Source: a virus | Lineage: Duplodnaviria; Heunggongvirae; Uroviricota; Caudoviricetes | Strand: one strand, 5' to 3' | DNA length: 14,827 nucleotides | IMG/VR virus record: IMGVR_UViG_2534681999_000018 | Location: 1-14,827 of that record | Part shown: in pieces, positions 4,917-6,304 of the stretch | Numbering within the stretch: the stretch's first letter is position 1 | Layout of the letters: each line of letters opens with the position of its first letter | Notes under the pieces: generated by a model | Database searches by the model: none | Told to the model about the DNA's origin: nothing | The model's input: the letters and a program-made list of their open reading frames with translations, nothing else | Program-made: the position numbers and the translations under genes

Positions 4917-5114
4917 ATGGTTGCTGTAAATCATATACCACACCTTGTACACACACAAACGGCCTTTGTGTGGCGTTTTCTGGCACTGAGTGCCGGAGAA
5001 TCTCAAATCATCCACGTAACCGCCTGGACGGAACGCGAAGCGCGTAACCGTTGCCCGTCCGGTTGTGTTGCTGTATTTGCCGCCCGTATTCGTCAGGAGG
5101 TGCGCCATGATTAA
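4917..5114 (+). CDS. Hypothetical small protein (possibly Icd-like, recalled family only)
   Basis: 65-aa product from ATG 4917 with AGGAG RBS (track ORF starts at 4842); first gene of a tightly overlapping operon. Confidence 0.45.
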   Translation: MVAVNHIPHLVHTQTAFVWRFLALSAGESQIIHVTAWTEREARNRCPSGCVAVFAARIRQEVRHD

Positions 5115-5319
5115 TCTGTCACTTACTGACCTTAACCGCATTCAGTTTCGTGAGAAATTCACAGGGCAGCTACTGGTCAATGTGGATAAAGGTCGCGTGG
5201 TGTGTAATTACCACTTACCAGATGAAGCAATTGTCGCCACAAGGGAATCATTACAGGAAATCACAAAACGTGCCGGAATGATTAACACGAATATTCAGGG
5301 GATGCTTTATGCACAATAA
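5107..5319 (+). CDS. Hypothetical protein
   Basis: 70-aa product from ATG 5107 with AGGAGG RBS; overlaps the upstream stop by 8 nt. Confidence 0.5.
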   Translation: MINLSLTDLNRIQFREKFTGQLLVNVDKGRVVCNYHLPDEAIVATRESLQEITKRAGMINTNIQGMLYAQ

Positions 5320-5773
5320 AACCACACCGGACGCAGCCGCCGAAGCCATCAAAACGCTGATGCACGCGCTGATTGATATTTCTGTTATCGCGGACAGGGC
5401 ACATAAGCACGCCACCAGCGAAACAGAATATGCCGGTGCTTTCGTTCCTCACTCACTGGCTGTCATGCAATTTAGTGCTGATACGGCGCTGAATGAGGCC
5501 AAAGCTATCCTGATTGCTGATTGTGAAAATGGGGGGGTTATGCGTGATGATCGTTTTAATTCCCTGAAACAGGAATTTTCCGGCGTTCCTGATGATGCGG
5601 CTGATGCGCTTTCGTCAATGCCAGAACTTATTAGAGCGGCTTTTTTCTTACTTTCCACGAGAGAATATAAATCAACGGGGCTTGATGTACTGAATATCGC
5701 CGCCGATTATGCGGAATATGTGGCAGAGGCGCGTTATAGAAGAAAATTTCCTGAGGATGTAAGCCATGCGTGA
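5309..5773 (+). CDS. Hypothetical protein
   Basis: 154-aa ORF overlapping both neighbours; no recognisable motif. Confidence 0.55.
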   Translation: MHNKTTPDAAAEAIKTLMHALIDISVIADRAHKHATSETEYAGAFVPHSLAVMQFSADTALNEAKAILIADCENGGVMRDDRFNSLKQEFSGVPDDAADALSSMPELIRAAFFLLSTREYKSTGLDVLNIAADYAEYVAEARYRRKFPEDVSHA

Positions 5774-5999
5774 TATTTACCACCAAACAATAGACCGCGC
5801 ATTTCTTGCACTTTCTCACAGTGAAAACATGATGGAAATATTGCGCATATGGCTTGAAACACTTGGCGACAATGAACGCGACAAACAAAAATCAAGAATT
5901 GCCACGGCATTAATAACGCTTCTTGAGCCTGTAATAATGGAACTGCAAGAAATAGATCTATTGCACGACAGATATAAAGAACAGCACACCGGAGAATAA
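5766..5999 (+). CDS. Hypothetical protein
   Basis: 77-aa ORF; start overlaps the upstream stop (ATGCGTGA). Confidence 0.5.
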   Translation: MRDIYHQTIDRAFLALSHSENMMEILRIWLETLGDNERDKQKSRIATALITLLEPVIMELQEIDLLHDRYKEQHTGE

Positions 6000-6004
6000 A
6001 AATA

Positions 6005-6304
6005 ATGAAACTTAAATATTCTGGCTTAACTGCCAGTGGCAACACTCACCCTAAATTTACGCGCGGTGATATTTACCGCGACCAGTACGGCGGCACGGTA
6101 ATGATTAAGGGCGTGGAAGAACGGCGCGTAACCTACCGCCGTGAAGGTTACGAATATGATTGCGTGATGCCTGTTTATCAGTTCCGGCGTGATTTTTCTC
6201 TGGTACAGACCGCGCCGCATAACGTGCCCACCAGCAACGCCAGGGCACGGGCAAACATCCAGAAGCTGAAAACCATGGTTAACGGATTCAGGGGCAAGAA
6301 ATGA
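6005..6304 (+). CDS. Hypothetical protein
   Basis: 99-aa ORF; stop overlaps the helicase start (ATGA). Confidence 0.5.
   Translation: MKLKYSGLTASGNTHPKFTRGDIYRDQYGGTVMIKGVEERRVTYRREGYEYDCVMPVYQFRRDFSLVQTAPHNVPTSNARARANIQKLKTMVNGFRGKK

Follow-up and report, generated by a model that had tools for sequence, protein, structure and literature searches.

The five small open reading frames (ORFs) at positions 4917-6304 of the window, the 14,827-nucleotide stretch of viral DNA analysed here, probably make up the small-gene section of an early/replication operon belonging to a Gram-negative phage-inducible chromosomal island (PICI) of the EcCICFT073 type, with the roles proposed below for its genes. 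The transcript is proposed to start at a promoter (4784-4812) set among island-specific direct repeats and opposite a divergent YlcI/YnfO gene, and would traverse a conserved leader hairpin before the genes are translated as a coupled chain, with the replication helicase last. Within this chain the frame would be fixed, with an Icd-like gene first, a DUF4222 gene last and exchangeable tiny genes between them. The five genes are already annotated in hundreds of Escherichia coli genomes, the island is of a textbook Gram-negative PICI type and for two of the five genes the family includes a member that has been characterised, and the finding as filed is therefore ordinary. Its useful part is the frame that is exposed for E. 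coli PICIs, in which an Icd/Kil-type gene stands at the start, an RgdR-type gene stands at the end, where it is fused to the replication (rep) gene, and the middle is swapped.

Gene layout and coding evidence

The features referred to in the text are as follows:

2329-3567: Int gene
3560-3784: AlpA-like gene
4543-4722, minus strand: YlcI/YnfO family gene, 59 aa (NCBIfam NF041551, 1.1e-16; phrog_949, 2e-23)
4744-4823, plus strand: promoter-like site and repeats, with the consensus TTGACG-17-TAATAT at 4784-4812
4852-4900, plus strand: leader element, with a hairpin at 4853-4887 followed by the tail TCTAACCA[A/C]CAACG
4917-5114, plus strand: ORF1, 65 aa, Icd-like, first gene of the operon
5107-5319, plus strand: ORF2, 70 aa, overlapping ORF1 by 8 nt
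5309-5773, plus strand: ORF3, 154 aa, overlapping ORF2 by 11 nt
5766-5999, plus strand: ORF4, 77 aa, beginning at ATGCGTGA (5766)
6005-6304, plus strand: ORF5, 99 aa, 5 nt from ORF4
6301-7701, plus strand: helicase gene, whose start shares ATGA with the stop of ORF5

The initial annotation placed five ORFs of 65, 70, 154, 77 and 99 aa here and named two linked start/stop junctions, ATGCGTGA at 5766 and ATGA at 6301, all of which were recovered at those positions. Each of the five ORFs starts with ATG, just 5' of which is a Shine-Dalgarno-like stretch rich in purines (AGGAG, AGGAGG, GGGGA, GAGGA and GGAGA), and exactly the same five CDSs are annotated in the identical island in RefSeq. PHROG family matches were obtained for all five, with E-values of 1e-23 to 3e-92. 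The five-ORF arrangement exceeds chance, and the substitution patterns are of the coding type. Comparison with diverged orthologs gave pN/pS values of 0.2-0.6 for ORF1, ORF3, ORF4 and ORF5 (0.42-0.44 for the helicase), while in every ORF the sites that vary across about 85 related loci fall preferentially at the third codon position of the predicted frame (p = 0.0006 to 0.044). The weakest coding support was found for ORF2, for which there are few diverged orthologs.

The earlier interpretation of the operon is supported in part. Its placement as a satellite early operon, 3' of a repeat-flanked promoter and 5' of a replication helicase, agrees with our analysis, and ORF2, ORF3 and ORF4 are indeed without an assigned function, such that the five are not uniformly well-characterised housekeeping phage proteins. 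The view that none could be assigned to a family does not hold for ORF1 and ORF5, which match NF033153 (64.8 bits) and DUF4222 (85.7 bits), respectively. Nor are the genes, suggested to be potentially the most novel of the window, new as sequences: annotated O157:H7 genomes contain this stretch at 100 % identity, and islands of this type serve as the model for Gram-negative PICIs. Structure prediction, which the initial annotation proposed as a check, provided an AlphaFold fold for ORF5, but only a poor model for ORF3 (pLDDT 54.6).

Putative promoter and leader element

Transcription most likely starts at the putative sigma-70-like promoter at 4784-4812, around which three exact GTGGCTGACA repeats are arranged (4744, 4789 and 4814). 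The position of the TTGAC element is kept in related islands, although the repeat sequences differ. Matches to the promoter consensus in the region show no excess (four observed versus 4.3 by chance). The divergent YlcI/YnfO gene may encode a local repressor of the operon; of 68 related loci, 53 carry such a gene divergently 5' of their Icd-like gene. A Bro-N gene is found 5' of the operon, on the far side of ylcI.

A leader hairpin is present in 71 loci, in 48 unique variants, and pairing is retained in 88.5 % of cells, as opposed to 28-52 % when the partners are slid. Compensatory changes occur at three of the hairpin pairs, and the near-invariant tail lies immediately 5' of the ORF1 ribosome-binding site. 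No Rfam family matches the hairpin; Rfam searches, run at gathering scores on the window as a whole and at E-values up to 5 on 3500-6400, likewise returned neither C4/isrK nor any other credible family. These patterns point to a conserved leader hairpin with covariation 5' of the operon, a modest new observation. A boxA-like character of the leader tail, judged by eye at about 8/12 matches to rrn boxA, was unconvincing.

Proposed roles of the first, middle and last genes

ORF5 matches the full Pfam DUF4222 model (PF13973; aa 16-68) at 1.6e-24, its 85.7 bits comparing with a gathering score of 27 bits. It shares 93 % identity with C1493 of CFT073 and 81 % with ECs1581 (RgdR) of strain Sakai, with a single residue difference to the latter in the core (aa 20-68). 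The protein has a pI of 10.2 and an intact R20-G21-D22, and matches both ECs1581 and C1493 in its length of 99 aa, the RGD at residues 20-22 and its place before a replication gene. On the basis of these similarities ORF5 is identified as an RgdR ortholog. Its AlphaFold model consists of an SH3/Tudor-like barrel and a C-terminal helix, for which a fold search of a viral library yielded DUF1653 and otherwise just small phage proteins that are uncharacterised; a CarD/UvrD-like RNA polymerase-binding function therefore stays a lead. Both ECs1581 and C1493 have been tested, and were found to activate LEE1 and type III secretion (T3S), repress motility and bind DNA (PMC3378721). Deletion of rgdR alters T3S in uninduced cultures (PMC3378721), and ORF5 must thus also be expressed without induction of the island. 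Such expression is left unaccounted for if ORF5 is regarded strictly as an early-operon gene.

The stop codon of the DUF4222 gene overlaps the start of the rep gene through ATGA in 80/80 IMG/VR loci, with DUF4222 always in last position, and this junction is kept whatever the catalytic type of the rep gene. Among other Enterobacterales, the next gene overlaps the short DUF4222 ORF or lies within 9 nt of it in 23/24 loci, and seven of ten proteins encoded 3' of short DUF4222 genes are O-like/DnaD-like initiators, with one further DUF927 protein. DUF4222 is linked to replication-initiator genes in lambdoid prophages also, which is again a modest addition to what was known. This fixed coupling to replication-initiator genes suggests, by synteny, that ORF5 has its native role in the replication module, in which case the virulence effect of RgdR would be cross-talk. 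It can be predicted from the frame that RgdR, known only as a regulator of EHEC virulence, primarily serves satellite/prophage replication.

Alternatively, ORF5 could be accessory virulence cargo whose place before the rep gene is functionally meaningless. The regulation of LEE1, T3S and motility by RgdR and C1493 would be in keeping with such a role, as would the inclusion of the gene among accessory virulence genes by Fillol-Salom et al. (PMC6092414) and the variability among orthologs of the RGD residue Arg20, which is required for T3S activation. However, an ORF5-type gene occurs in every E. coli PICI examined, including those of LEE-less strains such as CFT073, and is always ATGA-fused to the rep gene irrespective of catalytic type, whereas PICI accessory cargo normally varies in both content and position. 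Short DUF4222 genes are furthermore found directly 5' of initiator genes in lambdoid prophages of several LEE-less genera. A cargo role is thus possible, if rather unlikely. A bolder, joint reading of ORF5 and the leader, which we put forward as unlikely but conceivable, would make RgdR/DUF4222, rather than cargo, a core partner of the replication initiators of temperate elements across Enterobacterales, and the leader an undescribed cis-regulatory element. The RgdR barrel and basic helix, produced at a fixed ratio to the initiator by virtue of the ATGA coupling, would have DNA or RNA polymerase as their target, either at the origin or at the early promoter, with LEE activation in EHEC as a side effect, and the hairpin and TCTAACCA[A/C]CAACG leader would gate the whole operon.

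The match of ORF1 to the NCBIfam Icd-like model NF033153 (5.2e-18; aa 17-60) spans all 48 model positions, its 64.8 bits exceeding the curated cut-off of 25 bits. The same model scores 52.6 bits with P1 Icd and 73.9 bits with the P4 kil/eta frame, in which residues 85-132 of the frame of the P4 'cI gene product' are matched (7.8e-21). By BLASTP, ORF1 is 37 % identical to P1 Icd over 52 residues (P1 residues 8-56; E 2e-7). In P1 Icd, aa 12-51 form the functional core that binds FtsZ (PMC11897509), and the stretch covered by the family model is exactly this core. An Icd-like gene is the first of the operon, 5' of the DUF4222 and rep genes, in 68/68 IMG/VR loci. ORF1 is hence classified by homology as an Icd-like protein related to the P1 FtsZ inhibitor Icd and to the Icd-like domain of P4 kil/eta, of which it would be the counterpart. 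Host-takeover functions had been anticipated among these genes, and ORF1 is a candidate for one since it is related to a cell-division inhibitor. Like P1 Icd, it is expected to block host cell division by binding FtsZ, and the frame predicts that induction of the PICI arrests cell division through FtsZ.

An Icd-like effector could also form part of an abortive-infection or superinfection-exclusion module, with a product of an incoming phage as the trigger and growth arrest as the outcome. The gene set of the 'prophage' locus of ECOR61 appears to resemble the operon; expression of phage orf24 causes programmed cell death with this locus, an effect which is lost without the Icd-like gene (Silas et al., bioRxiv 10.1101/2023.04.06.535777). 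Sister islands with long Icd-like or upstream ORFs would be compatible with this proposal, but ORF1 is of the short, 65-aa form, the PADLOC defence models gave zero matches among the operon genes, and growth arrest during normal satellite induction would account for the data as well. A defence role is accordingly regarded as quite unlikely.

ORF2, ORF3 and ORF4 belong to narrow families which appear restricted to Escherichia, and are putative cargo. ORF2 matches phrog_340 (1e-23), and only 29 homologs were found among 5.8 billion proteins, the named ones all from Escherichia. It is present in 11 of the 68 loci, in some of which it separates the ORF3 halves, compared with 43 for the N-terminal half of ORF3, 37 for its C-terminal half and 36 for ORF4. 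ORF3 joins two 77-aa genes in frame, the point of fusion being a G7 homopolymer (5531-5537); an internal ATGCGTGA follows at 5540-5547. Other islands carry G8, G9 or G11 tracts and have the halves as two overlapping genes, as in strain 14EC001, where a G8 tract splits ORF3. In agreement, the PHROG matches are to phrog_2512 or to phrog_5146 together with phrog_24341, and many of the 53 cluster representatives recovered from 1.84 billion proteins are stand-alone halves. The protein is predicted to be acidic and helical, and a fold search was ruled out by the poor quality of its model. ORF4 (phrog_2196, 1e-42) is likewise acidic (pI 5.1) and helical. Its last codons (HTGE) hold the ORF5 ribosome-binding site and are retained in homologs down to 30 % identity.

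No paralogy was detected by hhalign among the 77-aa units (the ORF3 N-terminal half, its C-terminal half and ORF4) or between other pairs (≤1 %), and searches of the PDB by sequence, for which the five ORFs and also ORF3, ORF4 and ORF5 profiles served as queries, produced no match with an E-value under 0.28. ORF2, the ORF3 halves and ORF4 may be viewed as lineage-restricted cargo, three of the four units being acidic and helical, and our best guess is that their products modulate helper or host proteins. According to the frame, it is in these variable acidic mini-proteins that helper- or host-specific functions should be sought.

Island identity and related systems

The helicase that closes the operon is of the RepA type (AAA_25, 2.4e-43; phrog_2850). 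Its N-terminal portion of about 122 aa recurs in sister islands, in replication proteins of the primase and DUF927 types; identity to the corresponding domains of ECs1582 and of the CFT073 primase is 62-67 %. The other island genes encode an SSB, PerC, an E-type capsid protein, a D-type decoration protein and a Nu1-like protein, followed by phoQ. The island has the features which define Gram-negative PICIs, namely unidirectional int, alpA, rep and late genes, a size of about 10-15 kb, a dedicated site and no tail or lysis genes. From about 4882-4927 up to 14827 the window matches, at 100 % identity, an island that several O157:H7 genomes carry between roxA and phoQ. The left end of the window falls within a prophage gpA gene and the right end on the phoQ side; they derive from two different islands, the left from a helper-embedded PICI, and the two parent islands cross over inside ORF1 (about 4927-5046). 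The window thus appears to be a two-PICI hybrid with its junction inside ORF1, a further modest novelty, and this copy of the island may be immobile because its ends are mismatched.

EcCICFT073, the PICI of E. coli CFT073, also occupies the roxA-phoQ site (Fillol-Salom et al. 2018, PMC6092414). It has been mobilised by experiment; AlpA switches on its genes, and it is induced, replicates, and is packaged and transferred in a helper phage-dependent manner (PMC6092414). The gene order is alike, from int, an AlpA-type HTH gene, divergent YlcI, an Icd-like gene, small ORFs and DUF4222 (C1493) through to the replication gene, SSB, PerC, E-type capsid and D-type decoration protein. Its counterparts of ORF4, the ORF3 C-terminal half and ORF5 are 87, 90 and 93 % identical, respectively. 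It differs in that ORF1 is only 46 % identical, ORF2 is missing, the ORF3 equivalent consists of two genes and a primase, with only the N-terminal ~122 aa in common, takes the place of the RepA-type helicase. An Icd-family first cistron that overlaps the next gene is also found in the P1 immI operon (c4 RNA, icd, ant), where icd and ant1 overlap via ATGA, but no C4 antisense RNA was detected in the window and the genes 3' of ORF1 do not encode an antirepressor.

The left (early) operon of P4 (vis, the kil/eta frame, epsilon, orf151, orf106 and alpha) follows the same logic, running from an AlpA/Vis-type gene through an Icd-like frame and small genes to a replication protein. It differs in its replication protein and in its immunity RNA, of the C4/isrK type not detected here. 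ORF2 to ORF5 have no detectable homology to P4 epsilon, orf151 or orf106, and the helicase has no significant similarity to P4 proteins, including the alpha primase. A match between ORF5 and P4 orf151 (E 0.058) was rejected, with an hhalign probability of 6.7 %. P4-like satellites are defined by epsilon, orf151, orf106/DUF5375, the alpha primase and a CI/C4-type immunity RNA; the island falls outside this class, sharing only the Icd-like domain and the AlpA/Vis-type gene. Decay of a P4-like cryptic prophage, the description first given to OI-51, could have left the operon as a remnant with only rgdR functional and the other small ORFs drifting. This reading would suit the hybrid and possibly immobile island and the frameshift-split ORF3 of many genomes, but is highly improbable in view of the pN/pS values and third-position bias, the same frame with intact coupling in 80 loci, the induction, replication and transfer of the sister island EcCICFT073, and the lack of the P4 homologs and immunity RNA.

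O-island 51 (CP-933C, Sp7) of O157:H7 Sakai and EDL933, the carrier of rgdR (Flockhart et al. 2012, PMC3378721), lies at the same site as the present island and has the same frame, with the Icd-like ECs1577 (95 % identical to ORF1), small ORFs and ECs1581 overlapping the rep gene. Its RgdR is 81 % identical to ORF5, while ECs1578-1580 are unrelated or distant to the middle genes (26 % between ORF4 and ECs1580). The rep gene is of the DUF927 type, and the late region comprises a full HK97-type head and terminase set, so that the O-island 51 island is capsid-forming. The version of the island found in the window occurs at the O-island 51 site in other O157:H7 genomes.

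Organisation and origin of the early operon

The initial annotation had described five small, linked ORFs ahead of the helicase gene, and these sit exactly where it had placed them, with the ATGCGTGA overlap at 5766 present as described. The ORFs and the other features of the window are as follows.

Features of the window, in order
687-2167: truncated lambdoid terminase gene pair
2329-3567: integrase
Between the integrase and YlcI/YnfO genes: AlpA-like gene and Bro-N gene
4543-4722, minus strand: divergent YlcI/YnfO gene
4917-5114, plus strand: ORF1, 65 aa
5107-5319, plus strand: ORF2, 70 aa
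5309-5773, plus strand: ORF3, 154 aa
5766-5999, plus strand: ORF4, 77 aa
6005-6304, plus strand: ORF5, 99 aa
6301-7701, plus strand: RepA-type helicase gene
After the helicase gene, in order: SSB, PerC-family regulator, lambda E-type capsid, D-type decoration, Nu1-like gene, phoQ

From ORF1 to the helicase gene, the successive junctions consist of 8-, 11- and 8-nt overlaps, a 5-nt gap and an ATGA overlap at 6301, and every ORF has an ATG start with a purine-rich Shine-Dalgarno-like run upstream. The five ORFs are not chance reading frames, as the same five CDSs are annotated by RefSeq in an identical island, all five match PHROG families, their pN/pS values against diverged orthologs are 0.2-0.6 (comparable to 0.42-0.44 for the helicase), and alignment to about 85 related loci revealed an enrichment of variable sites at the third codon positions of each predicted frame (p 0.0006 to 0.044). 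Coding support is weakest for ORF2, because few diverged copies exist.

A set of O157:H7 genomes has an island between roxA and phoQ that matches the window with 100 % identity from position 4882 to the end of the window. The model Gram-negative phage-inducible chromosomal island (PICI), EcCICFT073, which has been shown to replicate, transfer and be induced by helper phages through AlpA (PMC6092414), occupies the same chromosomal site and has the same gene order. Gram-negative PICIs are divided into Integration, Bro, Replication and Late zones (Tommasini et al., PMC10111431), with the five ORFs falling after the Bro zone and before the Replication zone. The region represents the early operon already known from Gram-negative PICIs; its sequence is not new, being present in annotated genomes. 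What goes beyond existing annotation is the hybrid make-up of the window, the link of Icd to P4 kil, the conserved hairpin in the leader, the G-tract fusion of ORF3 and, in PICIs and lambdoid prophages, the strict coupling between DUF4222 and initiator genes. The roxA-phoQ island of strains Sakai and EDL933 (O-island 51, CP-933C or Sp7) shares the early-operon frame but is a different variant from that of the window: its replication gene is of the DUF927 type, and its HK97-type set of head and terminase genes is complete. The late region of the window (9652-12229) encodes lambda E-type major capsid, D-type decoration and Nu1-like small-terminase-like proteins, and no portal, protease or large terminase was found in it, as is the case in EcCICFT073, in contrast to the full HK97-type set of the Sakai late region.

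A study of phage accessory genes described an ECOR61 locus where an Icd-like protein is encoded with five linked genes, including a primase, and where expression of a phage gene results in cell death (bioRxiv 10.1101/2023.04.06.535777). This locus may represent an operon of the same type that works as an abortive-infection module. Membership of the P4 family is ruled out, with only the Icd-like domain and an AlpA/Vis-type gene shared, and no P4 early proteins found in the region or P4 immunity RNA in the window.

The window is a hybrid, derived from two PICIs. Its left part, positions 1-5046, matches at 99.9-100 % identity a helper-embedded PICI sitting within, and so interrupting, the gpA gene (terminase) of a lambdoid prophage, with the remainder of gpA found after this island in strain 57_142493, while from about 4927 to its end the window is identical to the roxA-phoQ island. 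The sole stretch common to both parent islands (about 4927-5046) lies within ORF1, and it is therefore plausible that homologous exchange took place in this conserved Icd-like gene, if the junction is genuine. Single O157:H7 chromosomes hold both parents in opposite orientation, and a large inversion is thus a plausible origin of the junction. The junction is absent from the complete RefSeq E. coli genomes, and the alternative to an inversion is an assembly chimera.

The conserved ends of the operon

ORF1 matches the NCBIfam Icd-like model (64.8 bits; cut-off 25) and shares 37 % identity over 52 residues (E 2e-7) with Icd, the cell-division (FtsZ) inhibitor of phage P1. Residues 12-51 of P1 Icd match the same model, and correspond exactly to the 40-residue core that suffices for FtsZ binding, Z-ring loss and filamentation (Zhao et al., PMC11897509). 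The P4 frame labelled 'cI gene product' is the kil/eta frame (Tommasini et al., PMC10111431), and its residues 85-132 form an Icd-like domain (73.9 bits, 7.8e-21). Judged by this common domain, ORF1 corresponds in the PICI to icd of P1 and kil of P4, and an Icd-type gene forms the first cistron of an early operon in the PICI, P1 and P4 alike. The make-up of the P4 frame is probably the reason why PHROGs 1743 and 6196, both of which are matched by ORF1, are labelled 'transcriptional repressor'. The N-terminal part of this 'cI gene product / transcriptional repressor' frame (8171-8584, minus strand) belongs to the Ash family.

ORF5 matches Pfam DUF4222 (85.7 bits) and, on sequence grounds, is an ortholog of the virulence regulator RgdR, with 93 % identity to C1493 of CFT073 and 81 % to ECs1581 of Sakai. 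Its RGD motif (residues 20-22) is intact, its conserved core (20-68) differs from that of ECs1581 by one residue, and the protein is strongly basic (pI 10.2). Both ECs1581 and C1493 activate LEE1 and type III secretion and repress motility, while ECs1581 binds DNA without evident specificity and the R20C variant is inactive (Flockhart et al., PMC3378721). The AlphaFold model (mean pLDDT 70; core 81-89) predicts a five-stranded SH3/Tudor-like barrel (23-68) and a C-terminal basic helix (77-96).

Among 80 IMG/VR loci carrying a DUF4222 homolog, the DUF4222 stop and the replication-gene start share an ATGA overlap in 80/80. The Icd-like gene, sometimes in two or three copies, heads the cluster in 68/68 loci with enough upstream sequence, and the divergent YlcI gene occurs in 53 of these, while each middle gene is present in only 11 to 43 of the 68, in many combinations. 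These sequences show an operon with fixed first and last genes and a variable middle, in which a coupled chain of small cistrons ends in the replication gene. Three types of replication protein occur, namely RepA helicase, primase and DUF927 protein. They share an N-terminal stretch of ~122 residues (window 6301-6666; 62-67 % identical) but differ in their catalytic parts, and by this comparison the replication protein joins a common N-terminal domain to an exchangeable catalytic module, with DUF4222 always ahead of it.

A scan beyond the PICIs, using one genome per species, identified 24 loci in Escherichia, Shigella, Atlantibacter, Citrobacter, Enterobacter, Serratia, Symbiopectobacterium, Providencia and others. 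A short DUF4222 ORF (54-86 aa) is overlapped by the next gene, or lies no more than 9 nt from it, in 23/24. Seven of the ten downstream proteins scanned are built like lambdoid O-like initiators (HTH_36, DnaD_N or Phg_2220_C), with one DUF927 protein, one Ash/Rha protein and one without a match making up the remainder. In phage vB_EcoS-733R5, a 59-aa DUF4222 ORF (3480-3659), left unannotated by the depositors, overlaps the start of the gene that they name replication protein O. This fixed coupling to replication and initiator genes is hard to reconcile with a role for RgdR as optional virulence cargo, and the synteny points to a native function within the replication module. In place of the DUF4222 ORF, the vB_EcoS-733R5 record annotates an antisense 'hypothetical protein' at 3438-3725.

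Proposed upstream regulation and mode of action

A sigma-70-like site (TTGACG, 17 nt, TAATAT; 4784-4812) lies among three exact GTGGCTGACA repeats (window 4744-4823). Sister islands have a TTGAC -35 element at the same place, with their own pair or triplet of different direct repeats, which suggests that the repeats are island-specific operators. We infer that the divergent YlcI/YnfO protein perhaps binds them.

Between this promoter and ORF1 is a hairpin (4853-4887), present in 71 loci as 48 distinct variants, in which 88.5 % of cells are paired, versus 28-52 % with slid partners. Compensatory changes occur at three pairs (AU/CG 28:17; CG/GC/UA 17:5:2; GC/CG 35:11), and the observed covariation score was reached by 0/500 shuffles, although relatedness among sequences, even with no structure, can be enough to exceed every shuffle. 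With the same alignment, RNAalifold kept only six of the pairs, one of which covaries. Folding of the leader on its own is not unusually good (z = -1.2), and no Rfam family matches it. A near-invariant tail, TCTAACCA[A/C]CAACG, follows the hairpin (to 4900) just upstream of the Icd-like gene; one leader alignment took in 46 loci. The hairpin could be a plus-strand leader or attenuator element. On the minus strand it has the form of an intrinsic terminator, with a stem followed by a T-rich run, and could instead serve as such.

On induction, the operon would first halt cell division via ORF1, the lineage-specific modulators ORF2-4 would be expressed next, and RgdR would be made last, in step with the replication protein. 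RgdR would bind DNA or polymerase in the service of the island, and its effect on LEE would be cross-talk from this activity. Experiments by others on close relatives have shown the AlpA- and helper-dependent induction of the island (PMC6092414), the inhibition of FtsZ by Icd (PMC11897509), and the LEE and motility regulation and DNA binding of RgdR orthologs (PMC3378721). In uninduced cells rgdR affects type III secretion (PMC3378721), which requires some constitutive expression. A site resembling a promoter within ORF4 (5910-5938; TTAATA, 17 nt, AATAAT, with an upstream TG), 67 nt before ORF5, could account for this and is offered as a lead only, such matches being no commoner here than chance predicts.

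The variable middle genes

No matches to ORF2, ORF3 or ORF4 were found in Pfam, NCBIfam, PDB or PADLOC. Their families are of small size: ORF2 has 29 homologs among 5.8 billion proteins, with the named ones all from Escherichia, and the ORF3 family comprises 53 cluster representatives among 1.84 billion proteins. ORF4 and each half of ORF3 are acidic, with a pI of about 5, and are predicted to be helical.

ORF3 consists of two 77-aa units joined in frame by a G7 run (5531-5537), directly followed by ATGCGTGA (5540-5547), the overlap motif also seen where ORF3 meets ORF4. The otherwise identical sequence of strain 14EC001 has G8 and two annotated genes. Across related islands, tract lengths from G7 to G11 switch between one fused gene (G7 in seven loci, G10 in two) and two overlapping genes (G8 in ten, G9 in six, G11 in two), and the tract may be slippage-prone. 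Given these counts, the occurrence of ORF2 between the two halves in some islands, and the many database homologs of ORF3 that are stand-alone halves, the common state is two separate coupled genes, with the 154-aa protein a lineage variant. The C-terminal HTGE of ORF4 (5985-5999) is kept even in 30 %-identical homologs. Its codons hold the GGAG ribosome-binding site of ORF5, and the constraint thus probably acts on the nucleotide sequence.
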